A stretch of 64,000 nt of DNA from Parcubacteria group bacterium GW2011_GWA2_43_11 (GTDB taxonomy: Bacteria > Patescibacteriota > Minisyncoccia > Phycocordibacterales > UBA12088). Positions 1,334-24,517 of this stretch are shown one piece after another. How positions within the stretch are numbered: position 1 is the first letter of the stretch; each line of letters begins with the position of its first letter. The DNA lies in NCBI GenBank assembly GCA_000998805.1, contig LCFC01000004.1:2446-66445 (forward strand), written 5' to 3'. The notes below the pieces were generated by a model that did not search any database, was not told the DNA's origin, and saw only the letters and a list, made by a program, of their open reading frames with translations. Made by a program: the position numbers and the translations under genes.

Positions 1334-3298
1334 TTAGTATGAAAGGGTTACTGAAGATTCAGTTTGCCCAGAGACTGGAATGGTTGTGGCAAAGGGTGCA
1401 AATCCTGGAGCCTTGATAGATACTGCAAACGAGTCTACGCTTAATGAGGGGAAGTAGGCGATACCGCATGGTCCAGTGGAACGGACTGTATCCACACTGC
1501 CTCCAATAATATGAACTTCAGCTCTTGCGACCGCACTTCCGAGTGGACCAGTTACTTGTAGAGATAGACTGTGTGCAGTCGCAGGTATAAGAGTGAGGGT
1601 TTGCTCGAGGGCGGTATCAGGTTCAAGGACGAGTGGGAGAGAAGGACATGCCTCTGCCACATGGTAGCCTGACACAACAAGCTCGTACGTATCAAATTCC
1701 ATATCTCCTGACTGCCATTCCCCCACTGCATTCGTCTGATTTGCCGTAGTATATTTATAAATAGGATTAGAGGATGCATCGGTACCTATGGTGGTACCAC
1801 TCGTAAGAGTAAAGGGAACATTGGCAACAGGAATTACCGGCTCGTGGTAGGAGAGTGTGTACTCGTGAATTTCTGGAGTTGAAACACTGTCACTACTTGT
1901 AAGGGTAGTGACGATACGCAATGAGGAGTATAGCGTTGTATCAAGCTCGCCTAAATCTATCGGAGACGTTGTAAGACCTGTGCTGTTGTTTGGTATATCA
2001 GTATCAGGTATGAGTGCAAAAACGCCACCACCAGTATCGTACTCTATCTGAAAACTCGCTGAAGTGTTTGGTGGTGTGGTGGCATCGTATGAGAACAAGA
2101 GCCACTCACCAAGTGATGCGGGAGATATGGGAGTAGAAATACTGACACCTGAAGCGCTGTAGCTTCCTGCAACCCCTCCAAGGGTGAGTGCTCCCCCAGC
2201 TACCTGTGTATCAGTGAGCAAGCTCAATTGTGAGGTATCGCTCATGGTATCAAAGAATCGTCCGCGGACTGGCCATAAGCGTGTTAGTAGGTCAATTGAA
2301 GAAAGTAAATCAATCTTAAAGAAAACCTCAGTGATGCTGTTTTCAGCTACGTTGTAGGGTGAAGGTGTTGGATTAGGGTTAGAGCCATCTGAGATATAGG
2401 TTTGTGCACTTGAATAACCATTCTTACTGATATATATCTCGTACCCTCCCCCTGCCCATGCGCCAGGGAAGGAAATAGTTCCACTTGCATTGGTAAATGT
2501 AGAAATATCGACTGATGTAGCAACAGTCGTGTTGAGTAAATGGATTGAAGCTGTAGGTACAGGGTCGTTTGTAGCATCAACAACGTTAATCCGCAGAATT
2601 CCTGCGCCTGCAAGTGATTCTTGAGATTTAGGTGCCATGGTGGTAACTAGAGAAAAAGTCTGAGTGGTTCCACGAAACTCATATCCTATTTCAACCTTTA
2701 CTCGCTTATAGTCAGCAGTGAGGGTGTCAGCTGCTCCTAACCCGTCCGCTGGATCATCGACATATTGGATGAAGGTACGTCGCGTGTATGCGTGGTTACC
2801 ATACGTGATAGTTACCAGTTGCGGTATGGTACCTGAAGGGAGGCCTGCGACTGTACCGATAGAATCAAAAGGAAGGGCTCGAATAACTTCGATGTGTTCA
2901 TTGGCGAGCATGAGTGCATTTGCGCGTAAGCGATTTCGTTCAGCAAAGGTGAGCATGGCTTGAAACGAAGCAAACAAGGTCACAAACACCATTGAGATAA
3001 TTGAAATACCTATAAGCATCTCTACAAGGGATATACCTTTTGTGTTATAGGACTTATGCAAACGGTGTACTACAAGAGCACCACAGGAGTACTTCATTTT
3101 TCTAATTCGTTCCTCATAAGAAAAATTGGTCGCATTACTATTTTTATAGTCGCTACGCTCCTTAAAAATATGTCTTATTTCATCGTTGCTCGTCACAAAA
3201 TGTCTCTCGTAGTATTGTTCATACAGCTCGTTCCATTTTGTTAGAGCACCTCGAACTACACTCGTTTGCGTAAGTCCCATGTTATTTTGTGTGGCCAT
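1334..3298 (-). CDS. Large pilin-like protein with a prepilin motif and a long Thr/Ser-rich C-terminal region. Its 5' end (residues 8–83) is an in-frame MITE insertion.
   Basis: Motif ...YNTKG|ISLVEMLIGISIISMVFVTLF. The ORF stays open from the ATG at 3298 through the element at 3048–3279. An element-internal ATG at 3097 gives a 21-aa leader, MKYSCGALVVHRLHKSYNTKG. Confidence 0.7.
   Translation of the reverse strand: MATQNNMGLTQTSVVRGALTKWNELYEQYYERHFVTSNDEIRHIFKERSDYKNSNATNFSYEERIRKMKYSCGALVVHRLHKSYNTKGISLVEMLIGISIISMVFVTLFASFQAMLTFAERNRLRANALMLANEHIEVIRALPFDSIGTVAGLPSGTIPQLVTITYGNHAYTRRTFIQYVDDPADGLGAADTLTADYKRVKVEIGYEFRGTTQTFSLVTTMAPKSQESLAGAGILRINVVDATNDPVPTASIHLLNTTVATSVDISTFTNASGTISFPGAWAGGGYEIYISKNGYSSAQTYISDGSNPNPTPSPYNVAENSITEVFFKIDLLSSIDLLTRLWPVRGRFFDTMSDTSQLSLLTDTQVAGGALTLGGVAGSYSASGVSISTPISPASLGEWLLFSYDATTPPNTSASFQIEYDTGGGVFALIPDTDIPNNSTGLTTSPIDLGELDTTLYSSLRIVTTLTSSDSVSTPEIHEYTLSYHEPVIPVANVPFTLTSGTTIGTDASSNPIYKYTTANQTNAVGEWQSGDMEFDTYELVVSGYHVAEACPSLPLVLEPDTALEQTLTLIPATAHSLSLQVTGPLGSAVARAEVHIIGGSVDTVRSTGPCGIAYFPSLSVDSFAVSIKAPGFAPFATTIPVSGQTESSVTLSY
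3048..3279. mobile_element. MITE-like element copy A (about 232 bp) with terminal inverted repeats TAGGACTTATGCAAACGG / CGTTTGCGTAAGTCC
   Basis: The terminal inverted repeats are visible directly. Internal segments (ttcatttttctaattc, ataagaaaaattggtcgcat, gtagtattgttcatacagctcgttccattttg) are shared with copies at 8972, 13727 and 24395. Confidence 0.75.
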
Positions 3299-3314
3299 GT
3301 GTTTTGTATGGATA

Positions 3315-4538
3315 CTACTGGATACTCGCGGTGATGCCGTAGATAGGGCTAATCATTGAAACTGCGAAGAAACCTACTGCCGCACCAACAATGAGCATTA
3401 AAAACGGTTCGATAATAGTAGACATGTTTTTTGTCTTCTGATCTACTTCGTTTTCATAAAAAGTTGCTATTTGGTGAAGCATATCGGGTAGAGAACCGGT
3501 TTCTTCGCCGACAGCGATGAGTTCACCGACTAGAGGTGGGTATATTTTTTCTGCCTCAATAAACACTTTGGCAAGTGCTTGACCTTTTTCAACTTCCGTT
3601 TGTGCCGCCAACAAAACATCTTTGTAGTAACTGTTCTGGAGTACGTTTCGGGTAATTTCTATAGATGTGAGCATGTTAACCCCCGATGAGAGAAGTGATG
3701 AAAGGGTACGTCCGGTACGAGCACTGTTTGTTTCTTTCATGATAGTACCTAGTACGGGGATATGGAGAAAGATTGTTTCAAAAGTGCGTTTTCCATACGA
3801 TGTTCGCATAGCTGCCATAAAAAAAGCAACCAAACCAACTAGTGATAGCAGTGCGAGAAGTGTGTGTGCCACCAGGAAGTCGCTTAAAAATATAACCACC
3901 CGTGTACTCATGGGGAGCTCAACTTCCATACTCTTGAATGTTTCAGTGAGTGTTGGAACTATAAAAATCATCATGAGTGTTCCTACGGTTCCAAGCACAA
4001 AGACAATAACAGAAGGATAAATCATTGCACCACGTACTTTTTTCTTCAGTGAGTACACACGGTCTAATTGTTCCGAAATAGTAAGCAAACTTTCCGCAAG
4101 TGTTCCTGCTTCTTCTCCTGAAGCAACCATTGAAACGACGAGATTGGAAAATACCTTTGGATATTTCTCCATTGCACCTGAAAGAGAGCTACCTTGTTGA
4201 ATGGAATTCGAAACACCCTGTAGTACCTCTTTGAGTTTTGGTTTTTTTGTTTGACGCTCAAGTACCGAGAGGGCGCGTGAAAGAGCCAATCCCGCTTTGA
4301 GCATTGCACCGAGATTGCGCGTAAGCATAATCTTATCGTTTTCCTTTATACGAAGAAAAAAAGACAGAAGATTAAATTCAAAAAGAGACGCGTGTTCCTT
4401 AATTTCTTTTATCGTCAGTATTTGTGCATTATCTTTACGCACTACATCATAGACTTTGAAGCGGTCTTTTGCTTCAAGTTTGGCTTCGTACGGCTCACTT
4501 TCACCTTTGCGTAATGCTTTGTATAGGTAGAGTGGCAT
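3315..4538 (-). CDS. pilC: Type IV pilus assembly protein PilC / GspF-family inner-membrane platform protein
   Basis: 407 aa with a GspF-like two-repeat architecture, hydrophobic segments, and the conserved GEETGSL / LIEPFLMLIVGAAVG motifs. Confidence 0.85.
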   Translation of the reverse strand: MPLYLYKALRKGESEPYEAKLEAKDRFKVYDVVRKDNAQILTIKEIKEHASLFEFNLLSFFLRIKENDKIMLTRNLGAMLKAGLALSRALSVLERQTKKPKLKEVLQGVSNSIQQGSSLSGAMEKYPKVFSNLVVSMVASGEEAGTLAESLLTISEQLDRVYSLKKKVRGAMIYPSVIVFVLGTVGTLMMIFIVPTLTETFKSMEVELPMSTRVVIFLSDFLVAHTLLALLSLVGLVAFFMAAMRTSYGKRTFETIFLHIPVLGTIMKETNSARTGRTLSSLLSSGVNMLTSIEITRNVLQNSYYKDVLLAAQTEVEKGQALAKVFIEAEKIYPPLVGELIAVGEETGSLPDMLHQIATFYENEVDQKTKNMSTIIEPFLMLIVGAAVGFFAVSMISPIYGITASIQ

Positions 4539-4542
4539 GGTG

Positions 4543-6327
4543 TTAGTCGCTGATAACGCGCAGTACTTCTTCTATAGTAGTGCCTCCTTGGACTGCTTTA
4601 AAGAATCCATCTTCAGCCATGGTGAGCATACCCTCAGAGCGTGCTTGTGCTTCTATTTTGTCGCTTGATGCCTGTTTGATGATGAGCTCGTTGATAGCAG
4701 ATGAAACCATCAGTACTTCGTTGATAACCATGCGACCTTTGTATCCATCAGGAGCTTCATCACTTGGAAGTGGTTTTGAAAATACCAAATCTTCAATTCC
4801 ATCCGTTTCTTTAATAACATGTTCATCACGAAGTGTTGTAAGTAATTTTTCAAAATCAATAACTTTTTTGAGCGAAACAATTTCTTCTTTTGAAAGTTTG
4901 TAAGATTCTTTTTGCCCATAAAGTCTTCGTACTAGTCGCTGTCCAATAATGACGCGGATAGTGCTTGAAAGTAAGAAAGGTTCAACCCCCATGTCCATAA
5001 GGCGAGGAATAGCTCCCGCGGCACTGTTGGTGTGTAACGTGGAAAGTACTAAGTGTCCCGTGAGAGATGCGTTCACTGCGAGAGATGCGGTCTCACTATC
5101 GCGAATTTCTCCTACCATGATAATGTCAGGGTCTTGGCGCACGAGAGCACGGAGACCCCGGGCAAAGGTAAAATCAATTTCCGGACGAACTTGTGTTTGG
5201 TTGATGCGTGCCATCTGGTACTCGATAGGATCTTCAATGGTAGAAATATTTACATCGGGAATATTTAAGAGATCGAGTATTGTATACAGTGTTGTAGTTT
5301 TTCCAGAACCTGTTGGCCCAGAGGTAAGAATCATACCGGTTGTTTGTTTCATGGCATGATGCAAACGTTCCAGTCCTTCACCATGGAAACCAAGTCCTTC
5401 TAAAGAATAGCCTCCGCCATTTTCTCGAAGGAGACGCATAACGGTTTTTTCTCCGTAGTACGTAGGAAGGAGTGAGACACGAAAGGATACTTTTTCGTTA
5501 TCGACTGCCATTTTGAAGCGACCGTCCTGTGGTAAGCGTTTTTCATCAAGTTTTAGGTTGGAAAGAACTTTGATTCTTGCAGTGATAGAAGCTGCGGTGT
5601 TTTTGGGCAAGGTCATAGCATCATGTAATAAGCCGTCTATCCTATACCGGACTAGAACTTCGTTTTCCATGGGCTCAATGTGGATATCTGATGCATTTTG
5701 AATGATGGCGTGTTTGAGAAGTGCGTTGACTACGCGAACAACAGGTACATCCTCTGCCAATTTCTTTAAGTCAGACTCAGAAACACCATCTTCTTCCTCA
5801 GAGAGTATGCTAATAGAGGCACTCTCGCGCTTGATAAGGTCACCAAATTCGTCTTTGAGTGTTTTTTGATATTGCAGTAGAGCATGTTTGATACTTTCTG
5901 CGTCGGTGAGACGAGGTAGGATTTTTAAGCCGACCTTCTTTTTAATAAATTCAATCGCTTGGAGGTCCTCAACATCAAGCATTGCCACCTCAAGCTCTCG
6001 GTCACTTTTCTTAAAGGCGATAATGTTGTGTGTACGTGCAATCGGTTCTGGAATCATGGAAAGCACTTCAAAGCCGATTTTTTCGTTGGCGAGATTAATG
6101 AACGGGACACCAAGGACGTATGCATGCATACGTCGTAAATCATCTTCGGATATATTGCCTTTTGAAACGAGAATTTCTTCGGGTGTGGTTTTTTTCTCCT
6201 CAGCTTCTTTTTCCGCATTGGTGTAGACAGCGCGTGACACGAGACCCGAGTCAAGAATGAAGTTCTTTAGTTGTGAACTTGATGTTTTCACAAAGTACCA
6301 GCGTTCAGGTAGCACACAGCTCCCCAA
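4543..6327 (-). CDS. pilB: Type IV pilus assembly ATPase PilB (GspE family)
   Basis: 594 aa with an N-terminal GSPII_E_N-like domain, Walker A TSGPTGSGKTTTLY, Asp/His boxes, and a tetracysteine-free C-terminus. The track start is TTG. Confidence 0.85.
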   Translation of the reverse strand: MGSCVLPERWYFVKTSSSQLKNFILDSGLVSRAVYTNAEKEAEEKKTTPEEILVSKGNISEDDLRRMHAYVLGVPFINLANEKIGFEVLSMIPEPIARTHNIIAFKKSDRELEVAMLDVEDLQAIEFIKKKVGLKILPRLTDAESIKHALLQYQKTLKDEFGDLIKRESASISILSEEEDGVSESDLKKLAEDVPVVRVVNALLKHAIIQNASDIHIEPMENEVLVRYRIDGLLHDAMTLPKNTAASITARIKVLSNLKLDEKRLPQDGRFKMAVDNEKVSFRVSLLPTYYGEKTVMRLLRENGGGYSLEGLGFHGEGLERLHHAMKQTTGMILTSGPTGSGKTTTLYTILDLLNIPDVNISTIEDPIEYQMARINQTQVRPEIDFTFARGLRALVRQDPDIIMVGEIRDSETASLAVNASLTGHLVLSTLHTNSAAGAIPRLMDMGVEPFLLSSTIRVIIGQRLVRRLYGQKESYKLSKEEIVSLKKVIDFEKLLTTLRDEHVIKETDGIEDLVFSKPLPSDEAPDGYKGRMVINEVLMVSSAINELIIKQASSDKIEAQARSEGMLTMAEDGFFKAVQGGTTIEEVLRVISD

Positions 6328-6783
6328 GTACTATGTATTGTATCAGGACTACGTGCATTAGGTGCATATGTTTTCAACAAGTGACGAGTAAAATAAGTTT
6401 CTAGTTCACAGTTCCTAGTTCTCCCCGCCACGGCGGGGTGAAGAAAGAAAGACGAAAAGAAACATGGATTGATTTCCTCCTTCGATTCCTACACCGGAGC
6501 TTCCTCCTTCGCTCCTTCCTAAGCTGAAGCTACGAAGGACAAGAAAGCTTCGGCGGGACGAGACGGCAGGGCGAGGCGCAATGATGCGTATTTTAAAGGT
6601 TTTTAAGAATATTGGTGGTCGTTTGTTCAGTACCAACTATGTCGGACCTAACGACTTCTGGCGCAGTCGCGGTGGTTTCGCGTTCGTCGTTCCGCAAGTT
6701 GGTCTTAAGATTTAAGACTCCTTGGCACGATTCGTTAAGGACTTCGGTTCTTTGCAAATTTCAGTCCTTTTTGACCATTGTGT

Positions 6784-6827
6784 AGCCCTGCATTCAATTC
6801 ATTCTGGATGCAGGGCGCATTTTTTTA
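6784..6827 (+). terminator. Rho-independent terminator-like hairpin (AGCCCTGCATTCAATTCATTCTGGATGCAGGGC + T7) in the pilB/nusA intergenic region
   Basis: A perfect 11-bp stem followed by a TTTTTTT run. It may end an unannotated small RNA at about 6400–6800. Confidence 0.45.
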
Positions 6828-7044
6828 GAACTAGGAACAAGGAACTTTTACCCTTCGACAAGCTCGGTACAGGGCGTACTTTCAACCCCAGTACCAAAGT
6901 CATGCGTGACTTGGTACGGGGCACGCTTTATGAACTCTATAACTTTTAACTTGTGCCCCCGCGGGGCGAGTTTGACATGAGCATTCCCTATGGTACTCTT
7001 TACGTATCTGAAATGTCCCTGAGGGGGCACTTTTTATTATAAAC

Positions 7045-7078
7045 AGTAGGACGTACACAAAAGGATGCAGTTCTAGAT
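7045..7078. repeat. Truncated MITE-family remnant (left end only) fused to the 5' end of nusA
   Basis: TAGGACgTACaCAAAaGGATGCAGTTCtAG matches the left end of the copies at 18362 and 21964 (…CAAACGGATGCAGTTC…). Confidence 0.5.
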
Positions 7079-7228
7079 CTAAAAGTAATAAACAGCGTTC
7101 TCAGCGAGCTTGAAGAGGATCGAGGTATTCCTCGTGAAAGCGTTATTGAGGCTATCGGAACATCACTCGCAACTGCCTACAAAAAAGAGTACGGCAGGAG
7201 GGGGCAGGTAATTCGCGCAAAATTTGAT

Positions 7229-8398
7229 ATGGCTACCGGAACAACTGAATTTTTTCAGGTGAAATTTGTCGTGGATGACACACGTGTGTGGTTTCCTACA
7301 GAAACAGAAGAAGGTAAGGAAGAGGGTGAAAATCACGAACGTGCAGTAGACCCGAACGCTCCGGTTTCTGAAGAAGATGAACGAGTGCGCTATGACTCTG
7401 AGAAGCACATGCTCCTCGAAGATGCTCGTCGTATCAAAAAAGACGTACAGGTTGATGATGAAATGATTTTCCCGCTCGAAACGCATGAAGATTTTGGACG
7501 TATCGCTGCGCAGACCGCGAAGCAGGTGATTATTCAAAAGATTCGAGAAGCGGAAAAGGTTTCTATTTTAGGTGAATTTGAAGGTCGTGAGGGTGAAATT
7601 GTTTCTGGTTCGGTCCAGCGAGTTGAACGAGGAAACATCTTCCTAGATTTAGGACGTACCCAAGCCATCATGCCTTATGACGAGCAAATCCCAGGTGAGC
7701 GGTTCCGACAGGGAGAGCGCGTACGTGCATACCTATATTCAGTAGAGGAGGGTCCTCGTGGTGTAATGATACGTGTTTCAAGGAGCCATCCTCGTTTCTT
7801 GATGAAACTTTTTGAAATTGAAGCACCTGAACTTGCAGGAGGATTGATTGAAATCAAAGCTATTGCTCGTGAACCAGGTAGTCGTTCGAAGATAGCAGTA
7901 CATGCTGTAGACGATCATGTGGATCCGGTAGGTGCACTCGTTGGTCAAAGAGGTGTGCGAGTATCGACCGTCATGAGTGAGCTTGGAGGTGAAAAGATAG
8001 ATATTATTGAATGGTCTGAAGAACAGGCACATTTTATAGAAGATGCGCTCTCACCTGCAAAAGTCCTTGATGTCGTAATAGATGAAGAAGAGCACCGCGC
8101 TACGGTGGAAGTGGTGGAAGATCAGCAGTCACTCGCTATAGGCAGGGGAGGTCAAAACGTCCGTCTTGCCGCGAAGCTTACTGGATGGAGGATTGATATT
8201 CACTCTATGCAAGGAGAGAGTACAGCTGAAGCAACTGATGATGAAAGTGATGCAGTATCCGAAATAGATGAAGAAGTAGGGCTTGTTGAAAACGATGTGG
8301 TAGATGATGCTGCACTATCTGCCGAAGAAGGTCTAAAGAATGATGCTGTAGAAGAGACCGAGGTTGACACTAAGGAAGGTGTTTCAGATAAGGAATAA
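7229..8398 (+). CDS. nusA: Transcription termination/antitermination factor NusA. The first ATG is at 7229, but the conserved N-terminal domain is encoded in-frame from 7043 with no canonical start codon.
   Basis: S1 and KH domains are present. The upstream in-frame translation LDLKVINSVLSELEEDRGIPRESVIEAIGTSLATAYKKEYG aligns to E. coli NusA residues 3–40. Confidence 0.85.
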   Translation: MATGTTEFFQVKFVVDDTRVWFPTETEEGKEEGENHERAVDPNAPVSEEDERVRYDSEKHMLLEDARRIKKDVQVDDEMIFPLETHEDFGRIAAQTAKQVIIQKIREAEKVSILGEFEGREGEIVSGSVQRVERGNIFLDLGRTQAIMPYDEQIPGERFRQGERVRAYLYSVEEGPRGVMIRVSRSHPRFLMKLFEIEAPELAGGLIEIKAIAREPGSRSKIAVHAVDDHVDPVGALVGQRGVRVSTVMSELGGEKIDIIEWSEEQAHFIEDALSPAKVLDVVIDEEEHRATVEVVEDQQSLAIGRGGQNVRLAAKLTGWRIDIHSMQGESTAEATDDESDAVSEIDEEVGLVENDVVDDAALSAEEGLKNDAVEETEVDTKEGVSDKE

Positions 8399-8434
8399 TT
8401 TTTGTTGTTTATTATAAGTAATAATAATAAATGT

Positions 8435-8971
8435 ATGAATATATGGCACGACGTACCACTAGGTAAAAATGCTCCGGAGAGCATCAATACTATTATCGAA
8501 ATACCCAAGGGGTCATTTAACAAGTACGAGATTGACAAAGAAACAGGGCTTATAGCACTTGACCGTGCAAACTATACAGCTGCTCCGTATCCATTTGATT
8601 ATGGATTTGCTCCACAGACGTACTGGGAAGACAATGACCCTCTTGATGTCATAGTCCTCACCTCATTTCCCTTGAGTCCGGGGATTTTGGTCCGGGTACG
8701 TCCTGTTGCTGTACTTGATATGATAGATGACGGTGATTCAGACATGAAGGTAATAGCTGTACCTGCAGATGACAAACGATGGGATGATGTGAACGATCTT
8801 CAAGATTTAAACAAGCATGCGCTCAAGGAGTACGAACATTTTTTCCAGACGTATAAAAGCCTCAAAGGTAAACCAGCTCCTGTGGAAACTCGTGGGTACA
8901 AGGGAAGAAAAGAAACACTTGAGATAATCAACAGAAGCGTTGAACTGTACAAAGAAAAATTTGGCAAATAG
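8435..8971 (+). CDS. ppa: Inorganic pyrophosphatase (family I)
   Basis: MNIWHDVPLGKNAPESINTIIEIPKGSFNKYEID...DPLDVIV carries family I PPase signature residues. Confidence 0.85.
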   Translation: MNIWHDVPLGKNAPESINTIIEIPKGSFNKYEIDKETGLIALDRANYTAAPYPFDYGFAPQTYWEDNDPLDVIVLTSFPLSPGILVRVRPVAVLDMIDDGDSDMKVIAVPADDKRWDDVNDLQDLNKHALKEYEHFFQTYKSLKGKPAPVETRGYKGRKETLEIINRSVELYKEKFGK

Positions 8972-9092
8972 TAGTATCTACGGAAACGGCGCACCACAGA
9001 AGTATTTCATTTTTCTAATTCTCCGCCTTCGCCAGATGGCGAATGGCAAATCATAAGAAAAATTGGTCGCATCCGTTTGCGTAGATACTATA
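8972..9092. mobile_element. MITE-like element copy B (about 120 bp), terminal inverted repeats TAGTATCTACGGAAACGG / CCGTTTGCGTAGATACTA
   Basis: It starts immediately after the ppa TAG stop and shares an internal core with copy A. Confidence 0.7.
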
Positions 9093-9226
9093 ACGAAAAA
9101 GAATGCAGTATATTTTTTTCAACAAACACACCTCTCTATCCCAAGAGAGGTGTGTCTTGGTATACTTTATCTGACGGCACATGAGAGAGCTGTAATGTTT
9201 ACTCAATATTCTTAACTCGTTATTGT

Positions 9227-10167: not shown

Positions 10168-10527
10168 ATGAACGAAGAAAACAATCAGAACTTGCAACAA
10201 ACTCAACAAGGAGGAGTGGAAGGTATGCCAAGTGTGGGAGATTACACAGATCCTGAGGCATCAAAAAACACGATTATCGTTGCAGTATTGGCAATTATTG
10301 TAGTAGTACTGGCGCTTATGTATATATGGGGTTCAAATAAAGAGATGCGGATAGAAGAATTGCCACCTCTTCCACCTGATGAACAGACTGAGCAACTTAA
10401 ACAGGTAAGTACATCAGACGAGCTTGACGTTATAGAGCTAGATTTATTGAACACAGAGCCTGACACACTTGATACGGGCCTTTCAGACATGGAGACAGAG
10501 CTAGACAATGAGTTAAACAAAAGTTAA
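10168..10527 (+). CDS. Small single-pass membrane protein, acidic C-terminus, hypothetical
   Basis: TM helix IIVAVLAIIVVVLALMYIW. It is followed by the AAAGTT-rich motif and a terminator. Confidence 0.5.
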   Translation: MNEENNQNLQQTQQGGVEGMPSVGDYTDPEASKNTIIVAVLAIIVVVLALMYIWGSNKEMRIEELPPLPPDEQTEQLKQVSTSDELDVIELDLLNTEPDTLDTGLSDMETELDNELNKS

Positions 10528-10556
10528 AAGTTAAATGTTGAAAGTTAAAAGTTCAC

Positions 10557-10583
10557 AAACCAGCGTACGCTGGTTTGTGTTTT
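10557..10583 (+). terminator. Rho-independent terminator (AAACCAGCGTACGCTGGTTT + GTGTTTT)
   Basis: Perfect hairpin followed by a T-run. Confidence 0.6.
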
Positions 10584-10878
10584 CAAGTTCATAGCAAACC
10601 CGCACACCTTATAAAGTGTATGAGCAAATATAAGGTGTATGGGCAAACTTTTAACTTTATAACTTCGTACTTTAAACTTTTATGTTGCGTTTCGCGCAAT
10701 ATCACGTTATGCTCGTAGCGTTGCAGATACTATTCAGCGTACGTGACTAGCTCACGGTACTGTCTAGTAGTTACTAAATAACTGTGCTATGACAGCACAC
10801 GGTCGCATAGACAATAATATGAACGAAACAACACAAAAACCCTCCTCCGCCAACCAGTCTATCGACGAGGTAGGAGCT

Positions 10879-13726: not shown

Positions 13727-13850
13727 TAGGACTTACGGAAACGGCGCACTTCTTCGTTGTCCTACGCAAAAGGTCACTTGTAGTATTGCTCATACAACTC
13801 GTTCCATTTTGCTTGGACGCCTTGAACTTTATTCGTTTGCGTAAGTCCTA
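13727..13850. mobile_element. MITE-like element copy C (about 124 bp), terminal inverted repeats TAGGACTTACGGAAACGG / CGTTTGCGTAAGTCCTA
   Basis: It follows the rpsG stop as taa-tag-TAGGAC… and shares its internal core with copy A. Confidence 0.75.
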
Positions 13851-14172
13851 AACAACACAAATCCTGCTAGGGCTTTTTTTTACTCGTATTAAACTACTTC
13901 AAACAATTCGCCGTCTTTCTTTCGAACTAGGAACTGTGAACTAGGAACAGGGAACATTTACGTCACTCGGTAACTCGCGACTCAGAACTCGGTAACTCGC
14001 TACTCATCTCCCGTTTGCGATTTCCCCAAATCTTATGTATAGTAATGCCACTTATAGCGACGCGCACTTTGCCTGTAATTCCAGAGCGTAGCGAATGAGA
14101 TTACAGTTGCAAGTGCGGTGATGCCCCCTGCAGGTACTGCGCGTTTTTTATTCATTAGTATCCTTTAACAGC

Positions 14173-16363: not shown

Positions 16364-16400
16364 AACATCCTTGGAGATAATCTCCAAGGATGTTTTGGTG
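16364..16400 (+). terminator. Rho-independent terminator after fusA (AACATCCTTGGAGATAATCTCCAAGGATGTT + TTTGG)
   Basis: A 12-bp perfect stem plus a T-run; preceded by the AAAGTT-rich motif. Confidence 0.65.
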
Positions 16401-16412
16401 AGGAAAGGAACC

Positions 16413-16793: not shown

Positions 16794-16974
16794 CCTCCCC
16801 CTCCTCGTTAAAAGTGATATAGATACAGTTCTTCTTTATGTAGCGTACAAGCAAAGATAAAAATGTCAAAGCACGATTATGTATACCGGTACTGATATTT
16901 TCAGCTATACCTGTATCATGATGTATCCAAATAGGTCACACCCCCAGGATACATTCTGGGGGTGAATTTCGAGA

Positions 16975-17385
16975 CTAATTGGCAACCATAGTTTTCGGCA
17001 TCTCCCACACTACTGTGGCTTCGGGCTTAAAACTGCAAGGGAATTTTTTATTGTCCCACGCAAGATGGCAGGTGGTGGCAGTTGCGTAGACTGTACCGTC
17101 AAGTGCCTTTATAAGCGTGATACTGACAGATTGTCGGTGATCGCCATCAGATTGTGGCGATATAAGTGCAAAGTATTGAATTATATAGAACTTTCCGTAC
17201 TTTGCTTTCTCCTCATCGCTTTGTGCCGTAACGCGTTTTTCTCCGGTGGAAACAGGTTTCCACGTCTTCAGTACCTCAATTGAGGGCATTTGTCTGTCGT
17301 CTACTGCTTGAGCCGGAACAACGAAGCAGAAGAACAACAACATGCTTAAAATTGATGATAGTAAAAAAACACTGAGCTTTTTCAT
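16975..17385 (-). CDS. Secreted hypothetical protein (signal peptide)
   Basis: MKKLSVFLLSSILSMLLFFCFVVPAQA. Confidence 0.55.
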   Translation of the reverse strand: MKKLSVFLLSSILSMLLFFCFVVPAQAVDDRQMPSIEVLKTWKPVSTGEKRVTAQSDEEKAKYGKFYIIQYFALISPQSDGDHRQSVSITLIKALDGTVYATATTCHLAWDNKKFPCSFKPEATVVWEMPKTMVAN

Positions 17386-17609
17386 TGTCCTCCTCCTTTT
17401 TTGAGTGGTTGGTGTGGTGTTAGGGTTGCGTAATCTTCTATATATAGCGTCTCATGCGTACAATATTTGTCAATAGTATTTTGGATACGTCTAAACACAC
17501 ATATACTGCCTTAGTGTTTAGGAAAGTTCGTCAAAATCATTTTTAAAAAAATCTAGCGCCTGAGTCCATCAGGCGCTGGAAAAAAATGGTAAAGACAGAT
17601 GATAATGAT

Positions 17610-17996
17610 CTAGGACCTAAAAAAGTTTGCCATTTTTTTGATCACTATATCTTCGTGACCTGGAACTTTTTTCGCAAAATGGCGTAACTTGTCCGCCTCT
17701 TGAAAATGTGAAAAAAGGCCTAAACAGAGATCTAACAGAGCATCTTTCTCCGCAGAAGGGTTTGGAGCAATCAAGTATCCTTTAAGAGCTTGACTGAATG
17801 TCTCTGTAAAACTACATAAACATTCAAATGCAGACTTTCTGCCCATGATTGACTCCCCATTTCGTCGAATTGCTTCTACATAAGCCGTGCATGCTTCTTC
17901 GTGGCAAGTAACATAGGCAGCTACCCCCAGAATATCTTTTAGTTTTTTTTCGGGAAGTCCCAGTGCGATACTCATCTCCTTAGTATTTATTCCCAT
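17610..17996 (-). CDS. Hypothetical protein (128 aa from the ATG at 17996, which has a GGAGGT Shine-Dalgarno)
   Basis: GGAGGTATCAGAATG context. The ORF is open further upstream to 18053. Confidence 0.5.
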   Translation of the reverse strand: MGINTKEMSIALGLPEKKLKDILGVAAYVTCHEEACTAYVEAIRRNGESIMGRKSAFECLCSFTETFSQALKGYLIAPNPSAEKDALLDLCLGLFSHFQEADKLRHFAKKVPGHEDIVIKKMANFFRS

Positions 17997-18120
17997 TCTG
18001 ATACCTCCTTCTTTCTTACGATTTATAAAAAAAATCTCATTTCCTGCGTGCACTGTACTAAAATATTTCTTTGCTGTCTACTATACTGGTTTTTAGCCAG
18101 TGCTCGCGTATACTTTCTCT

Positions 18121-18348
18121 ATGGAGACGGTTGAAGAACGGATACAGGTGCTTCTTGAAAAGGTCCGCCCGTACATACAGATGCATGGAGGGGATGTTCA
18201 GCTTGTGCGAGTCGAAGATTCCACAGCAGTGGTAAAGGTGTACGGTGCTTGTGTGAATTGTACACTTGCCAGTGTCACGTATAATAAAACTATCGGACCA
18301 CTCATCATTAAAGAGATACCTGAAGTAACTGATGTTGAGTTCGAGTAA
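18121..18348 (+). CDS. NifU-like (Nfu) Fe-S cluster scaffold/carrier domain protein
   Basis: METVEERIQVLLEKVRPYIQMHGGDVQLV…GACVNCTLASVTY carries the CxxC Nfu motif. Confidence 0.75.
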   Translation: METVEERIQVLLEKVRPYIQMHGGDVQLVRVEDSTAVVKVYGACVNCTLASVTYNKTIGPLIIKEIPEVTDVEFE

Positions 18349-18361
18349 AATTATTATTAAC

Positions 18362-18486
18362 TTAAGACTTTCGCAAACGGATGCAGTTCTAGGAAAACGA
18401 GCAAAATGGAGTGAGCTGTACAACGTCGTACAGTGAATGACGTTTTGTGAAGTTTGACAACGAAATGCGCCGTTTCCGTAAGTCCA
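18362..18486. mobile_element. MITE-like element copy D (about 125 bp, opposite orientation, degenerate left terminal repeat)
   Basis: …CGCAAACGGATGCAGTTC…AAATGCGCCGTTTCCGTAAGTCC; the internal core matches the copy at 21964. Confidence 0.65.
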
Positions 18487-18502
18487 ATAATATAAACAAT
18501 AT

Positions 18503-18763
18503 ATGGCAGATTTACGAGAATACCCACGAACCGCTGAAGGTTCAAATATTAGCAAAGTTGTGGTAGATCGCGACCTTTGCATAGCAGCTGTTTCGTGTAT
18601 AGCAGTTGCAGGCGAGGTGTGGGAGCTTGATGACGAAAACAAAGTGGTCGCAAAAGACGCTAACGCTGCAGATGATGCGACACTCATTGCTTCTGCAGAG
18701 GCATGCCCTACGAAAGCAATACTCCTTTTTGATAACTCTGGAGCACAAATATTTCCAAAGTAA
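18503..18763 (+). CDS. Small [3Fe-4S]/[4Fe-4S] ferredoxin
   Basis: DRDLCIAAVSCIAVAGEVWELDD…AEACPTKAI (Fer4_13-like). Confidence 0.7.
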   Translation: MADLREYPRTAEGSNISKVVVDRDLCIAAVSCIAVAGEVWELDDENKVVAKDANAADDATLIASAEACPTKAILLFDNSGAQIFPK

Positions 18764-18945
18764 CTATATTTAATCTACAAAAGATAAAATTCCCCTCCCT
18801 GTACGGGGAATTTTATGTATAGCAAAGGGATACGTTGTCATATACTGTGTAGTACAGCGTCCTCACTATTTCCACGGCGTATCAAGCAAAGATACTGCAG
18901 TATGAGTTACAATAGAAGAGTACTACTTAGATAAATGTTTTTTTC

Positions 18946-20232
18946 ATGCAATATTATACATACGTCATAATCGGAGGAGGTATCGCGGGCACGACTGCTG
19001 CGGAAACTATTCGAAAAAACGACCCTGTTGGTTCAATAGCGATAGTTTCGGACGAACCTCACAATTGTTACTCTCGGGTACTACTCTCAAAGCCCAAATG
19101 GGTACTTGGGGAACAGCCATTCGAGAACGTATGGTTGAAAAGTGATGCGTGGTATAGAGAAAACAATATTCACCTATTCAAAGGGATTCGCGCTACCGAG
19201 CTTCAGTCAGGTGCTAAAATAGTGACGCTTTCTGATGGCGATAGTTTGCAGTACAAAAAACTTCTCTTAGCTACGGGAGCACATTCACGGAAATGGGATG
19301 TGAAAGGGTCCGATAAAAAAGGAATATATTATCTTCGTACAGTGGATGATGCTACGGCAATAAGTGAAGTGGCACAGGGTGAGCCAAAGCGGGTAATTAT
19401 GATAGGAAGCGCGTGTGTCTCATTTGAAATTATTGAAATACTGCATTCTCGGGGATTTACCGTCACGGAGGTGATGCGTGAGAGATACTTTTTTGAACCG
19501 CAGCTTAGTCCGGAAGAAGTTGCTCCTATCGAAAAAATGCTTGAAGAGAAAGGTATTGAAATCGTGCGAGAAGTGGAAGTGGCAGAAGTGCTCGGCGACA
19601 CGCAAGTCACAGGTGTTCGTCTCAGTAATGGGCGCGAGATACCATGCGATATTATCCTGCCGTTTATTGGAGTTGAGCTACCTGTCGGGTGGATACAAAA
19701 GGCAGGTGTTGCTACACACAAAGGAATTTATGCCAACCAGTTTCTTGAGACCAATGTTCCTGATGTATGGACAGCAGGAGACACTACTGAGTGTTGGGAC
19801 AGTATGTTAGAAGAAACTGTTATCATGGGTAACTGGATGAGTGCCCGTTTACAGGGTGAAATAGCAGGGAAAAACATGAGCAATGCTACAAAGGAGCCGT
19901 TTGCTCAAGTATCTTTCCACACCAGCCATGGTTTCGGTTTTCAAATAGGGTGGACTGGAGATGTGCGCGCACTTGAAGACCGCATAGTGATACACTACCC
20001 CACACCTCTCGAAAACAGTCATTGTCGAATCATTATTGCGAAAGGAAAAGTGATGGGTGGCACGACTGTCAACAGGCCTGATCTAATGGGTGCAATCACA
20101 AAACTCATCAAAGCAAAAGTAGACATGAGTGATAAGCTTGAAGGACTTAGGGATGGTACTGTAGATATAAAAACACTTGTTGCACCCGTTGTAAGCCCTA
20201 TCTCACAAACTCTTTCTCAACATCAAGAATAA
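18946..20232 (+). CDS. FAD-dependent pyridine-nucleotide-disulfide oxidoreductase (NAD(P)H oxidase / ferredoxin or rubredoxin reductase-like)
   Basis: N-terminal GGGIAGTTAA FAD fold and a second Rossmann motif MIGSACVSFE. Confidence 0.8.
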   Translation: MQYYTYVIIGGGIAGTTAAETIRKNDPVGSIAIVSDEPHNCYSRVLLSKPKWVLGEQPFENVWLKSDAWYRENNIHLFKGIRATELQSGAKIVTLSDGDSLQYKKLLLATGAHSRKWDVKGSDKKGIYYLRTVDDATAISEVAQGEPKRVIMIGSACVSFEIIEILHSRGFTVTEVMRERYFFEPQLSPEEVAPIEKMLEEKGIEIVREVEVAEVLGDTQVTGVRLSNGREIPCDIILPFIGVELPVGWIQKAGVATHKGIYANQFLETNVPDVWTAGDTTECWDSMLEETVIMGNWMSARLQGEIAGKNMSNATKEPFAQVSFHTSHGFGFQIGWTGDVRALEDRIVIHYPTPLENSHCRIIIAKGKVMGGTTVNRPDLMGAITKLIKAKVDMSDKLEGLRDGTVDIKTLVAPVVSPISQTLSQHQE

Positions 20233-20326
20233 ATGAACGGCGTACTATAAGCGTCGTAGGGCGTGCATATTTGCAAAGTTAATTTTTTGTTGTACTATAA
20301 TTAAAGGAGCTCAAAATTACTAAACC

Positions 20327-20626
20327 ATGAAAGGGGGTGCAAGCATGGAAGATTATGCAACATTGTTTCGGTTCGAGTGGAATAAGTTTATCCCACTTGA
20401 ATCAATACAGGGATTTCCACACGATTTTCGTATTTCACTTTTTAAAATAGGATTTACCCATGGATATCAAGATGATGTTTCGGGTCATTTCTTGGTACGG
20501 AAGACAGTGGGAGGAAAACAGGTATTGCGACACATTGGGGCGGGAGATTGGATACAAGTTCATCCTCGCATCAGGCTTAAAGTGAGAGGAGATTTGAGTG
20601 AGCGAAGTGTTGTTCTCCCATTGTAA
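20327..20626 (+). CDS. Hypothetical protein
   Basis: 99-aa ORF followed by two terminator hairpins at 20632–20680. Confidence 0.4.
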   Translation: MKGGASMEDYATLFRFEWNKFIPLESIQGFPHDFRISLFKIGFTHGYQDDVSGHFLVRKTVGGKQVLRHIGAGDWIQVHPRIRLKVRGDLSERSVVLPL

Positions 20627-20631
20627 ATTAA

Positions 20632-20686
20632 ACCAGCCTTTGTGCTGGTGTTGTTGGAACGACCCATTCCGGTGGGTCGTTTGTTG
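20632..20686 (+). terminator. Tandem terminator hairpins (ACCAGCCTTTGTGCTGGT; AACGACCCATTCCGGTGGGTCGTT + TGTTGTT)
   Basis: Two perfect stems; the second is followed by a T-rich run. Confidence 0.55.
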
Positions 20687-20815
20687 TTAACGATAGTCTT
20701 TTGAATTCAACGAGAATATTGATTAGTAGAAGAGTAGACAAAAATATATTTCAATGATATTTTCATGCTAGGTTCGTTCCATAGAATTCAGGCAAACCTT
20801 AACAAGGAGAAAAGT

Positions 20816-21151
20816 ATGGACGGGAAATATTCGGAGCTCTTTGGTATATATCACGTAACTAAAATTCTGTTCCAAAAGACTATTGAGAGGATTGGTAAGG
20901 AAAATTTTGATTATGATACCCTTCTGGGTTTTTTGGAACACAACAACTCCAGTGTGCTGGAAGGGACAAGAAGAATTCTTTTGCTTCATTATCCTGAGAA
21001 GCTGAGCCGTAACATGCTGTACAAATTTCGTGATTTCTCAGGAGATTACGACGTTCAAACAATGGCACTCGGTGTTTTGGAGGAAAGGAAAGTTCAGGAA
21101 GACGGTCTTCGTAAAAGAGCCGACAATGTGGTTGCGCTTTTTACCTGCTAA
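20816..21151 (+). CDS. Hypothetical protein (ATG at 20816 with an AAGGAG Shine-Dalgarno)
   Basis: AAGGAGAAAAGTATG. The ORF is open from 20765. Confidence 0.5.
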   Translation: MDGKYSELFGIYHVTKILFQKTIERIGKENFDYDTLLGFLEHNNSSVLEGTRRILLLHYPEKLSRNMLYKFRDFSGDYDVQTMALGVLEERKVQEDGLRKRADNVVALFTC

Positions 21152-21157
21152 GCGGTT

Positions 21158-21191
21158 CTTTTATCCCCCTGTCTTGCGACTGGGGGATAAA
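21158..21191 (+). terminator. Terminator hairpin TTTTATCCCCC…GGGGGATAAAA
   Basis: A 10-bp stem. Confidence 0.5.
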
Positions 21192-21301
21192 ACGTCTATT
21201 GGGAGGAGAATCAATAAGGGTTGACAACTGTCTATATTCATGCTAAACAAGAGTCAGGTACACATTTCGTGTGCTCTTTTAATTCAACATGGAGGTGTGT
21301 G

Positions 21302-21757
21302 ATGGAAAAGGAACGACGTGAGAGAATGGCCCTTTTACTTGCTTACAAAAAAACGCAGCTACATCCCGAACAAATACCTATCCGTGAGCAGAACAGTATT
21401 GCTGGTCAGCTTCATGATGCCGAGGGTAAGCGGTTGTTCCCTGGGAAAAATGGCAAGAAAGAATTCGCCAATTTTTTAGAAAGGTGTAAGGTCGGCAATT
21501 TTCTCGAACGTGATGGAGAAATTGCGGTAGCACTTATTCTTTTTAATCATCGAAAAAAAATGGCATCGATTCGACACGATGAAAAAGAAAAAGAACACTT
21601 CAAGCCACATTTAACCACGGATGAAGTCGTTGAACTCTTCACGGACGAAGAATATGCTCCTCTTGATTTTGACATGACTCAAAAAATTGAGTTTGCAGAA
21701 TTTGTAAATTGGCTGAAGGAGGTCGCATACCATCAGGTTACACGAAGTCATAAGTAA
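21302..21757 (+). CDS. Hypothetical protein (ATG at 21302 with a GGAGGTG Shine-Dalgarno)
   Basis: GGAGGTGTGTGATG. The ORF is open from 21221. Confidence 0.5.
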   Translation: MEKERRERMALLLAYKKTQLHPEQIPIREQNSIAGQLHDAEGKRLFPGKNGKKEFANFLERCKVGNFLERDGEIAVALILFNHRKKMASIRHDEKEKEHFKPHLTTDEVVELFTDEEYAPLDFDMTQKIEFAEFVNWLKEVAYHQVTRSHK

Positions 21758-21963
21758 CACGTTTTTAACACGTAACAATCTAAGACTTGGTTGGGACAAG
21801 ACAATCTCCCCTTATTGGCTCGCAACGTAGGGTTGCAACGAGCGTCCACTCTTAGTAAAAGGACCGTATTTATACGGGCCTTTTTGTTTTCATACAAAAT
21901 TTCAGGACTTACTCAAACAGACTGGAGGTTAAAACGTTTCTTGAGAAGAGACGGATTGTGGTT

Positions 21964-22087
21964 TAGGACTTATTCAAACGGATGCAGTTCAAGGAAAACG
22001 AGCAAAATGGAGTGAGCGGTACACGTCGTACCTTGAACGACATTTTGTGAAGTTTGACGCCGAAATGTGCCGTTTAAATAAGTCCTA
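21964..22087. mobile_element. MITE-like element copy E (about 124 bp), terminal inverted repeats TAGGACTTATTCAAACGG / CCGTTTAAATAAGTCCTA. Its last 3 nt (TAG on the minus strand) are the acd stop codon.
   Basis: The acd ORF ends …IMVK-TAG, where the TAG is the terminal TAGGAC of the element. Confidence 0.75.
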
Positions 22088-24124
22088 CTTCACCATGATA
22101 CGAGCATCAACAATCCGCGCACCTGTAGCGGTGGCAAAGACTGGATTGAAGTCTATTTCCTCAATCTCTTTGTGTTCCAATGAAAGCTTTGAAAGATAAG
22201 CGATAACTTCTGCGAGGGCTTGTAGGTCAACTGGTACACTCCCTCGTGCTCCAGTAAGTAATGGCAGTCCATGTATTTCTTGTATTTGTTTGAGCGCCTC
22301 CTCTACAGTGACGGGAGCTATGCGGATGGAAGAGTCTTTCAGTATTTCTACAAATATTCCTCCTAGTCCAAAGACTATCGTAGGACCAAAGATGGGGTCT
22401 CGCTTCATGCCCACTATACACTCCACACCTTTAATCATCGGCTGTATGAGCATACCGTCGATGATAGCACCTTCTGTGTGTTTTCCGACGTATGTTTCTA
22501 TATCGTCCCATGCATGTAACAGTGCTTCAGCGTTTGCGAGGCGAAGTTTGACAGCTTGCAAATCACTTTTGTGCACCAGTTGCATTGAGATTGCTTTCAT
22601 AGCATAGGGTCCTGTCCCAAGCTTCGTGATAGCTTTCGAAAGTTCTTCTTTATTTTTCACAAATACTCCTTCGAGACTCATGTCGTACTCTCGTAAAATA
22701 GCTTGCATACCCTCAAAGGAAAGCATGGAGAGGTGCGTTGAAAGACGAGGGGTGGGAGGTGTTGAGTCAGGCACTTTCGCCGAATGGCGCGCCAATGCAT
22801 CAAGCGACTCGACTGCGTCTGTTGGAGAATCAAAGCTCACCATACCAGCCTGCTTGAGTATGTCTATGCCCGCTTCTACCGTAGCACCACCCATAAAGAC
22901 TGGGATGATTGGTTTTTTAGCATGTTCTGAAATAAGTACCTCGGCAATTCCTGCAGGATCAGTCATCATCTGTGGAGTCACAAGGGCAATGATGATATCA
23001 ACCTCGGGTATGTCGCTCAAAATGTTAAGTACGTCTTTATACCTACTAGGGCCAGCATCACCTATTACGTCGACAGGGTTACCCACTGCTGCCATAGGAG
23101 GAAGGACGCTTCGAAGTGCTTCTTTGGTTTCATCAGAGAAGGTTACAAGTGAAAGTGAGTTTGAGAGTCCGATAAGGTCTGCGGTGTTTACAGATGGTCC
23201 TCCACCATTTGTAACAATTGCGATTCGTTGTAGCTCTTTTGTCGTGAGTCCGAGCTTCAATAGTTTGGAGAGAGAGAAGAGTGTGCGGAGCGAGTCCACA
23301 GGGATAGCGCCAACTTGTGCAAGCGCAGCCCCAAAGACTTTATCCGAAGGTGCGAGTGAGCCTGTGTGGCTTGCGACCGCAGCAGAGCCTCGTGTGCTTC
23401 TACCTGCTCGCAAGACAACGAGCGGTTTCTTTTTTGCAAGTCGTCGTGCAAGTTCAAGAAAACGTGGTCCATCACTCACTTTTTCAATATAGAGAAGCAC
23501 CGCTTTAGTGTCCTCATCATCTATAAGGTATTCCAAGAACTCAAGCTCAGTGAGAGATGCTTCATTGCCAAGGCTTACAAACTTGGAAAAACCAACGCCT
23601 TCTTTATTTGCCCAGTCTAATAGTGCGGTACCGAGTGCTCCTGATTGTGAGACAAAAGCAGTGCTACCTTTCGAAGGTTTACCAACTGCAAAGGACGCAT
23701 TCCAGTCTGCGTGTGCGTTCATAATACCGAGGCAATTGGGACCGAGGAGTGTGATGTCGTGCTTGTGTGCAATTTCGGCGATACCTTCCTCAAGCTTTTT
23801 ACCTCCTTCTCCCATTTCTTTAAAGCCTGCGGAAATAACAATAGCCGAATGTATACCTTTTTCTGCGCACTCTTCGAGTATTGAAGCAACGATATCAGCG
23901 CGTACCGCGATGACCGCAAGGTCTACGTCTCCGGGGATGATTTTGACTGATGTGTATGCCACATGACCAAACACTTCTGTCTCACTCAAGGTGACAGGGT
24001 ATACTTCTCGCACACTTCCCGCGAGAATGTTTTTCATGAGAGCATAGCCCACCTTTGATTCGTCATTAGTTGCACCGATTACAGCGACCTTGTTTGGGTT
24101 GAAAAGGGTATGTAAATTTATCAT
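22085..24124 (-). CDS. Acetate--CoA ligase (ADP-forming), fused alpha/beta subunits
   Basis: 679 aa with a CoA-binding N-terminus VAVIGATNDESKVGYALMKN, succinyl-CoA-synthetase-like folds, and an ATP-grasp C-terminal domain. Confidence 0.9.
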   Translation of the reverse strand: MINLHTLFNPNKVAVIGATNDESKVGYALMKNILAGSVREVYPVTLSETEVFGHVAYTSVKIIPGDVDLAVIAVRADIVASILEECAEKGIHSAIVISAGFKEMGEGGKKLEEGIAEIAHKHDITLLGPNCLGIMNAHADWNASFAVGKPSKGSTAFVSQSGALGTALLDWANKEGVGFSKFVSLGNEASLTELEFLEYLIDDEDTKAVLLYIEKVSDGPRFLELARRLAKKKPLVVLRAGRSTRGSAAVASHTGSLAPSDKVFGAALAQVGAIPVDSLRTLFSLSKLLKLGLTTKELQRIAIVTNGGGPSVNTADLIGLSNSLSLVTFSDETKEALRSVLPPMAAVGNPVDVIGDAGPSRYKDVLNILSDIPEVDIIIALVTPQMMTDPAGIAEVLISEHAKKPIIPVFMGGATVEAGIDILKQAGMVSFDSPTDAVESLDALARHSAKVPDSTPPTPRLSTHLSMLSFEGMQAILREYDMSLEGVFVKNKEELSKAITKLGTGPYAMKAISMQLVHKSDLQAVKLRLANAEALLHAWDDIETYVGKHTEGAIIDGMLIQPMIKGVECIVGMKRDPIFGPTIVFGLGGIFVEILKDSSIRIAPVTVEEALKQIQEIHGLPLLTGARGSVPVDLQALAEVIAYLSKLSLEHKEIEEIDFNPVFATATGARIVDARIMVK

Positions 24125-24217
24125 CTCTATATTCTACAGGCAGTTGTATAGATGGCTCAAATTTTATATGTGAGCGTAATACTCTTGTAAGATTTTTGGC
24201 AGGGGTGAAGTGTACAT

Positions 24218-24517
24218 AAGGACTTACGCAAACACGGATGCGACCTAATTTTCAAGGAGCGCAGCGACTATGAAAATGAAAATGCCCTTGTGGTACAGCT
24301 CGACTTGTCCGCCGTAGCTTTTGCAGAGGTGGAAGCAAGTTTTTTTAGAAACTACGCCCCCATACTGAAGTCGTGCACGTTCCCGTATTACGTCAGGACT
24401 TACGCAAACGGATGAAGTTCAAGGCACCCAAGCAAAATAGAGCGAGTTGTATGAACAATACTACGAGAGATATTTTGTGCTGGGCAACGATGAAATACGC
24501 TGTTTGTGTATGTCCTA
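24218..24517. mobile_element. Two adjacent MITE-like copies, F1 at 24218–24394 and F2 at 24395–24517. The end of F2 provides the TAG stop of the downstream 2-oxoacid oxidoreductase beta gene.
   Basis: aAGGACTTACGCAAACacGG… and …CAGGACTTACGCAAACGG…CTGTTTGTGTATGTCCTA. The internal core of F2 matches copy A. Confidence 0.7.

Follow-up and report, generated by a model that had tools for sequence, protein, structure and literature searches.

It is proposed that the dispersed repeats in a 64-kb window from Parcubacteria group bacterium GW2011_GWA2_43_11 (the window being the whole stretch of DNA analysed, 64,000 nucleotides of contig LCFC01000004.1) are, very probably, a family of miniature inverted-repeat transposable elements (MITEs) that lack a transposase of their own and carry the terminal inverted repeats (TIRs) of a small (1.07-1.16 kb) subgroup of the IS701 family of insertion sequences (ISs). 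Genomes of the candidate phyla radiation (CPR), or Patescibacteria, are small and are usually described as poor in mobile DNA; here a 22-kb segment contains about 1.6 kb of MITE sequence, and many CPR contigs from groundwater carry members of the family. The repeats were studied by repeat finding, by alignment and with an nhmmer profile made from four full copies and the A-core part of a fifth, and related contigs or loci compared with the window are labelled with L-numbers (L259, L215 and so on). The window contains 14 matches to the 18-nt terminus TAGGACTTACGCAAACGG at up to three mismatches, where shuffles predict 0.02; none of 100 shuffles reaches 14, and all 14 matches are confined to positions 3048-24517. 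An initial annotation of the same DNA had described a repeat family with consistent ends of about 18 nt and had taken it for non-autonomous transposable elements; the first point is borne out by these counts and the second by the shared termini, by a target duplication of constant length, by insertions that are present in some related strains and absent from others, and by an autonomous partner whose ends are the same.

The length of the target duplication was obtained by comparing the five bases left of TAGGAC with the five right of GTCCTA in the window and the related contigs. A perfect 5-bp duplication flanks 19 of 94 non-redundant insertions (permutation mean 0.6, maximum 4), and at least four of the five positions match in 33 of the 94 (4.4 expected); among the same 94 insertions, flank repeats of 2, 3, 4, 6, 7 and 8 bp show no excess. 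The duplicated site is AT-rich and nearly palindromic, approximately T-A-W-T-A. Since the exact 5-bp duplication lies outside the terminal TA, duplication of TA is ruled out and the terminal TA is part of the element. Aligning the flanks, as the initial annotation had suggested, thus did reveal a duplication, though one of 5 bp rather than TA, and the TA/TAG target preference that it had advanced does not survive: the TA of TAGGAC...GTCCTA is the element's own, and 2-bp flank repeats number 11 against 11.0 expected.

Unoccupied sites, which the same annotation had expected in related strains, were found there in a search of all loci with the two flanks of each element joined together. The site of the window copy at 18363 is empty in L215 (flanks 88% identical), that of L250:7829 in L169, and those of L169:3615 and L169:4450 in L250; these four, the clearest empty junctions, fit a single copy of the target in the empty site. 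Among strains with identical RpsG, the rpsG-fusA spacers of some carry a diverged orthologous copy after rpsG and those of others carry none. The site of L233:5295 also looks empty in L200/L208, with a junction that is irregular for a clean 5-bp duplication.

The autonomous partner emerged from the termini left unpaired: a 1,068-bp unit, L259:473-1540, runs from TAGGACTTACGCAAACGG to CAGTTTGCGTAAGTCCTA and contains a single open reading frame (ORF) of 338 aa, whose stop codon lies inside the right terminus. This ORF scores 398 bits against NCBIfam NF049921 (transpos_IS701_2, IS701 family; cutoff 250, E=3e-119) and also matches Pfam DDE_5 and DDE_Tnp_1; its family-model matches include no IS630 model. 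Relatives of the transposase, 52-61% identical, are found in Hymenobacter (L006), Paraburkholderia (L280) and Acinetobacter (L281) plasmids, where the first 13-18 bases at both ends of the element are kept, and the MITE termini are identical at 18 of 18 nt to those of L259 and of the Hymenobacter element. Full-length elements with shared termini comprise L259:473-1540, L280:193-1314, L281:2-1159, L006, L286, L288 and L289, with sizes of 1,068-1,158 bp, and transposase homologues at E <1e-30 number more than 7,000. Five flanked full-length copies carry duplications of 5 bp (ACCTC, TCTAT, TCTCA), 6 bp (TTTCTA) and 4 bp (AGTA). The DDE transposase sought as a partner by the initial annotation therefore exists, in an element with the same termini, but it belongs to the IS701 family and was seen only outside the CPR DNA examined, and the Tc1/IS630 assignment has to be given up. 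Next to the L259 unit, in a non-CPR host, an ABC-2 permease gene (L284/L259:1512-2264, minus strand) reads into the IS right terminus and ends there (...GLTQTAWE*), indicating that the autonomous element also rewrites a gene 3' end.

In the proposed mechanism, an IS701-type transposase supplied in trans would bind both ends of the element, excise or copy it, and insert it at a cut staggered by 5 bp. The favoured target would look like the context of a stop codon (TAA/TAG plus A/T), and copies landing inside genes would be purged from the compact genomes, so that survivors would accumulate on stop codons, with the terminal TAG of the element often becoming the new stop. The window copies are presumably old, because they are only 67-86% alike and just one of them retains a perfect target site duplication (TSD), and their internal palindrome may have been kept by compensatory change. 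The link to the IS701 subgroup gives a testable transposase-substrate pair.

Several observations weigh against this proposal. No transposase of any type was detected among the 39 ORFs scanned in the 64-kb window, and tblastn with the transposase matched only L259 and L006 among all loci compared, neither of them CPR-like. The full IS found through its termini sits in a contig of 58% GC (L259) with non-CPR neighbours; it is this GC content, together with the neighbouring IclR and branched-chain ABC transporter genes, that marks the host as not CPR-like. No two of the sampled 124-bp copies are at least 95% identical (maximum 94%, median 77%), so that recent activity would be conjecture. Past the termini, the likeness of one MITE end to the right end of the IS extends for only about six bases, and descent by internal deletion of this particular IS would be conjecture as well. 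With no CPR transposase and no near-identical copies, mobilisation in CPR cells and current activity can only be inferred. Some junctions are also at odds with a clean 5-bp duplication: L233 carries 2+2 extra bases between its repeat (AGTATA) and the termini, and repeats of 8 bp and 11 bp stand at odd junctions in L216 and L279, respectively.

Beyond the window, at least 120 metagenome loci contain the exact 18-mer. The metagenome matches listed, together with the window and the CPR genome loci, yielded 304 termini and 115 paired elements, which, among the matches listed, cluster at discrete lengths, chiefly about 124 bp, with further classes at about 130, 180-188, 211-217 and about 240 bp. 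Among the same matches there are 95 distinct element sequences, from hosts with a GC content of 39-62% (median 44%); element size ranges from 119 to 344 bp, and an alignment of 44 copies shows conservation of at least 90% in most terminal columns. Scanning a genome collection with a degenerate terminus gave mostly single chance matches, and multi-hit CPR genomes alone were informative; the scanned genomes with several copies are Parcubacteria or labelled Saccharibacteria, i.e., CPR bacteria, and the viral contigs scanned gave only single, apparently chance matches. The window locus encoding the 2-oxoacid:ferredoxin oxidoreductase (POR) matches LCCJ01000013.1 (GCA_000997835.1), with the same protein and the same spacing, and the window also matches aquifer metagenome contigs of project PRJNA268031; an exact-protein look-up returned no match for Ppa and only the same strain for POR-beta. 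The MITEs are a likely cause of broken assemblies and provide presence/absence markers for strain tracking. Minimal elements of 46-67 bp, with little beyond the two termini, were seen in other CPR contigs (L112:4015-4070, L199:3236-3281 and L277:892-958), and they show that the termini persist on their own, as hairpins. Pairs of distant termini in L067, L047 and L216 were considered as long elements and rejected, being ordinary genes between separate MITEs.

Six elements in the window are full (119-232 bp), three more are fragments and another is a decayed copy; the cores are of two types, A and B. A 232-bp composite of an A core and a B module occupies 3048-3279 (minus strand; recognised by its termini and by an nhmmer match at 3278-3164, E=6e-28), and a 119-bp B-core element at 8972-9090 (minus strand; minimum free energy (MFE) -49 to -55 kcal/mol) begins right after the ppa stop codon. 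The other four full copies have A cores: 13727-13850 (124 bp, minus strand) lies in the rpsG-fusA spacer with taa-tag in front and is present or absent among related strains; 18363-18487 (125 bp, plus strand) has its empty orthologous site at L215:802-1107; 21964-22087 (124 bp, plus strand) provides, as its terminal TAG (complement of 22085-22087), the acd stop codon; and 24394-24517 (124 bp, plus strand) does the same for POR-beta (complement of 24515-24517). The positions of these six agree to within 1-2 nt with those first assigned, and the mosaic internal cores described at the time correspond to the A core, the B core and the A+B composite. The stop codons attributed to the repeats were likewise correct, the acd and POR-beta ORFs ending at 22085 and 24515 with the terminal TAG, and the rpsG and ppa stops directly preceding an element. 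Two further entries hold in reduced form: 24218-24393 (176 bp, plus strand) is real but has a left terminus only, carries a B-like module and is cut short by, or adjoins, the following copy, and 7047-7078 (plus strand; right limit approximate) is a fragment, a truncated left end consisting of a terminus with three mismatches and ATGCAGTTCTAG, beyond which similarity is lost. Two copies were absent from that list, namely a solo terminus with a remnant at 21903-21963, abutting the copy at 21964-22087 and found by the terminus search, and a decayed full-length A-core copy with eroded termini at 50782-50903 (minus strand; nhmmer match 50901-50789, E=2.9e-16) in the rpsJ-rplC spacer upstream of rplC. 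One variant is common to both termini of 8972-9090 (TAGTATCTACG... / ...CGTAGATACTA), and an ATT variant to both termini of 21964-22087. Pfam confirmed the flanking genes as pilC/pilB-type genes, nusA, ppa, rpsG, fusA, acd and the genes for POR subunits.

The single perfect TSD in the window, TGTTA at 3043-3047 and again at 3280-3284, belongs to the composite copy 3048-3279, which is inserted in frame within the prepilin leader of ORF 1334-3298 (minus strand). The element plus one copy of the duplication amounts to 237 nt, or exactly 79 codons, and the interrupted pilin-like ORF stays open for 654 codons; removal of the 237 nt restores MATQNNTKG|ISLVEMLIG..., a typical short prepilin leader. 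An uninterrupted allele of the pilin gene was sought, and the search returned only homologues of 36-44% identity, still with short leaders of 0-17 residues. To judge from the sequence, the long leader of 88 residues may be tolerated because it is cleaved off, or translation may restart at an internal ATG or TTG within the element. The initial description of the repeats as non-coding, with indels breaking every frame, thus holds for the family, for which a protein search gave only three short ORFs, and fails for 3048-3279, which is open in frame. As the elements supply stop codons and add 79 codons to one prepilin leader, gene callers will mis-set starts and stops.

For 69 of the 95 distinct elements, an incoming ORF of at least 100 aa ends near or in the element; the terminal TAG is the stop codon of the host gene in 23 of the 95, and about 27 others have a stop ending no more than 3 nt from the element edge, often as a TAA in the first three bases of the duplication, so that a stop codon lies no more than 3 nt away from some 50 of the 95 copies. 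We attribute this pile-up to a target preference for stop-like AT-rich pentamers combined with purging of those insertions that strike coding sequence. If only one gene 3' end adjoins an element, the better-folding strand of the element is antisense to that gene in 33 of 38 cases; clustered by flank homology, these give 30 of 35 independent loci (30:5, p=2e-5). The duplication motif is nearly symmetric, and the autonomous ISs show no consistent orientation at gene 3' ends, with two of five copies in the orientation concerned. The bias could be caused by selection against the tighter hairpin in mRNA or by asymmetric target capture; together with the strand-asymmetric covariation described below, it poses a small puzzle that concerns either the target choice of the transposase or an effect of the hairpin on transcripts.

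The copies of about 124 bp are imperfect palindromes over their full length and fold as rods, with an MFE of -41 to -55 kcal/mol for the better-folding strand and -31 to -49 kcal/mol for its complement (z -5.6 to -9.1 and -2.8 to -8.1, respectively). This low-energy fold over the whole element is the starting point for an alternative in which the repeats, MITEs by origin, are kept or oriented by the host as structured 3' RNA hairpins with a role in transcript stability, termination or processing. Across the 44 aligned copies of 124 bp, pairing holds for 96.8% of the cells, and 21 of 39 pairs have changed in a compensatory way, values that none of 500 shuffles and none of the slid registers approach; the same strand folds better in 44 of 44 copies (-53.5 versus -45.0 kcal/mol), G-U pairs outnumber A-C pairs by 106:17 (32:17 among rare states), and the 30:5 orientation and the roughly 50 of 95 copies at stop codons point the same way. 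Changes in both arms of the termini are only modestly in excess of independence (18 observed versus 12.3 expected), in a test that is biased because the metagenome scan required one perfect arm. However, DNA palindromes can gain compensatory changes without selection, through template switching, arm-to-arm correction and descent from a few master copies, so that the covariation can be inflated by palindrome-correcting mutation and shared descent, and the strand that would be co-transcribed with the host gene folds less well. Within the elements, a consensus scan turned up no promoter-like site and a single weak terminator-like one, no Rfam family matched anywhere in the window at the gathering score, and an ARAGORN search of the window for tRNAs found nothing. 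We regard host maintenance as RNA hairpins as unlikely, though not negligibly so, and the stricter form of the idea as distinctly improbable, namely that the elements serve as a standard gene-end module (an RNA hairpin, terminator or processing signal) whose insertion or survival is directed to stops in a fixed orientation and whose hairpin is kept by selection on one strand, in streamlined CPR genomes from which the transposase is apparently missing. In a bolder form of this idea, recognition of some feature of gene 3' ends would lie with the IS701-type transposase itself. The possibility of a structured RNA with covariation, raised at the outset as the alternative to a mobile element, is thus realised in part: the covariation is strong, and it stands alongside clear signatures of transposition rather than replacing them.

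The remaining explanations fare worse than a MITE family mobilised by an IS701-type transposase. Peptide mini-genes or in-frame insertions, comparable to the palindromic elements of Rickettsia, are suggested by a recognisable, conserved conceptual peptide on one strand (GLTQTD.VQG..AKWNELYEQYYERHFV..NDEIR.FRKSY, or in brief GLTQTD..KWNELYEQYYERHFV..), by an element length that, with 5 bp added, is a multiple of three in 56 of 95 copies (the main size classes), and by the 79 in-frame codons of the pilin-like gene. Yet this frame contains stops or frameshifts in most copies, a comparison with 5.8 billion proteins returned only three short ORFs, Pfam gave no match to the element peptide in any frame, conservation tracks base pairing and not codon position, and almost all copies are intergenic; a coding role is very improbable, and the conceptual peptide arises as a by-product of DNA conservation and represents no protein family. 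Scarcely credible, too, are Tc1/IS630-type non-autonomous elements that insert at and duplicate TA or TAG: the TA at both element ends and the many copies on TAA or TAG stops would fit them, but the 2-bp repeat shows no excess while the 5-bp repeat outside the TA is strongly enriched, the TA lies within the ends of full-length ISs that make mostly 5-bp duplications, and the partner transposase scores as IS701 family. REP/REPIN-type palindromes moved by RAYT (IS200/IS605-like HUH) or by some other single-strand mechanism would share the long hairpin, the strand-asymmetric pairing and the intergenic location, but REPINs make no target duplication, in contrast to the fixed 5-bp one here, the termini are those of a DDE (IS701-family) element, and no Y1/HUH gene was seen in the window; this explanation is next to inconceivable.

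Other repeats share the window with the MITEs. A third repeat family consists of Y-shaped palindromes of 84-94 bp (GGGTTGACCC.GTAGTG.AAATTGACGATGC...; MFE -41 to -54 kcal/mol), with overlapping copies at 46735-46828 and 46817-46901 upstream of tuf and another at 50551-50634 between rpsJ and rplC, beside the decayed MITE; it has relatives in the CPR loci L169, L174, L187, L164, L218 and L190. A second insertion-type unit of about 80 bp (14058-14142, GCGCAyTTTGCCTGkTAATTyCAGAGCG...GGTAC.GCGC) lies just upstream of fusA; L145, L146, L149, L150 and L153 have two copies each, and the site is empty in strains L152 and L154. The left end of this unit mimics the rpsG 3' end, and in L145-type strains its second copy sits at the rpsG stop, with the final 18 nt of rpsG present on either side. 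Two intergenic regions, 10519-10682 and 27147-27187, have in common arrays of AAAAGTTAAA-like units (97% identity over 32 nt, direct and inverted copies), which may be promoter, terminator or binding-site arrays. A 25-nt inverted pair of 96% identity (GTTTCTAGTTCACAGTTCCTAGTTC / GAACTAGGAACTGTGAACTAGGAAC) lies at 6397-6421, upstream of the pilB-type operon, and at 13924-13948, in the rpsG-fusA spacer. The 851-aa fn3/beta-helix ORF (30332-32887) includes at 32297-32854 a 270-nt tandem repeat (85% identity, 288-nt spacing) that probably represents duplicated fn3 domains. Finally, a 41-nt direct repeat (98% identity) at 39650-39690 and 41064-41104, the two copies 1.4 kb apart, sits at the boundaries of ORFs 38965-39744 and 39754-40971 and of ORF 41108-42127.

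The closest comparison is with the IS701 family itself, whose classical members measure 1.4-1.55 kb, make a duplication of exactly 4 bp and have ends of the form ---YACT-Y--YR (PMC2266710). The element termini match this consensus at ACT and YR, and the 5-bp duplication of the MITEs agrees with the 4-6 bp, mostly 5, of the partner ISs; the MITEs differ in having no transposase, and the partner subgroup departs from the classical size and 4-bp duplication, with 1.07-1.16 kb and mostly 5 bp. Its smaller size and mostly 5-bp duplication place the partner in a separate small subgroup of the IS701 family and not in the classical core. ISAba11, described as 'related to IS701' and carrying 13-bp repeats (PMC7519801), is a more distant relative, its transposase being only about 30% identical to that of the partner. 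MITEAba12 and other IS-derived bacterial MITEs (PMC6382973) are likewise non-autonomous and multicopy, with IS-shared termini and a fixed-length duplication; the parent IS family, the termini, the host phylum (CPR/Patescibacteria) and the target (oriented stop-codon contexts) are different here.

Among bacterial mini-elements more generally, the Correia/NEMIS elements of Neisseria and the ERIC sequences of enterobacteria are imperfect palindromes of 100-150 bp with TIRs, intergenic beside genes, co-transcribed with them and varying in size through indels; they duplicate TA, and to our knowledge no transposase has been securely assigned to them. The repeats described here are alike in size, palindromy, TIRs and intergenic dispersal but have a 5-bp duplication, an identified partner IS family and no sequence similarity to either group. 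Rickettsia palindromic elements are palindromic mini-elements of reduced genomes that lie mostly inside ORFs and can persist in frame, and we know of no transposase or clear duplication for them; the in-frame copy 3048-3279 in the prepilin leader resembles them, whereas nearly all other copies here are intergenic at stop codons and in-frame retention is exceptional. Set against these systems, the family is a known kind of selfish DNA, unusual mainly in its landing on stop codons with one preferred orientation.

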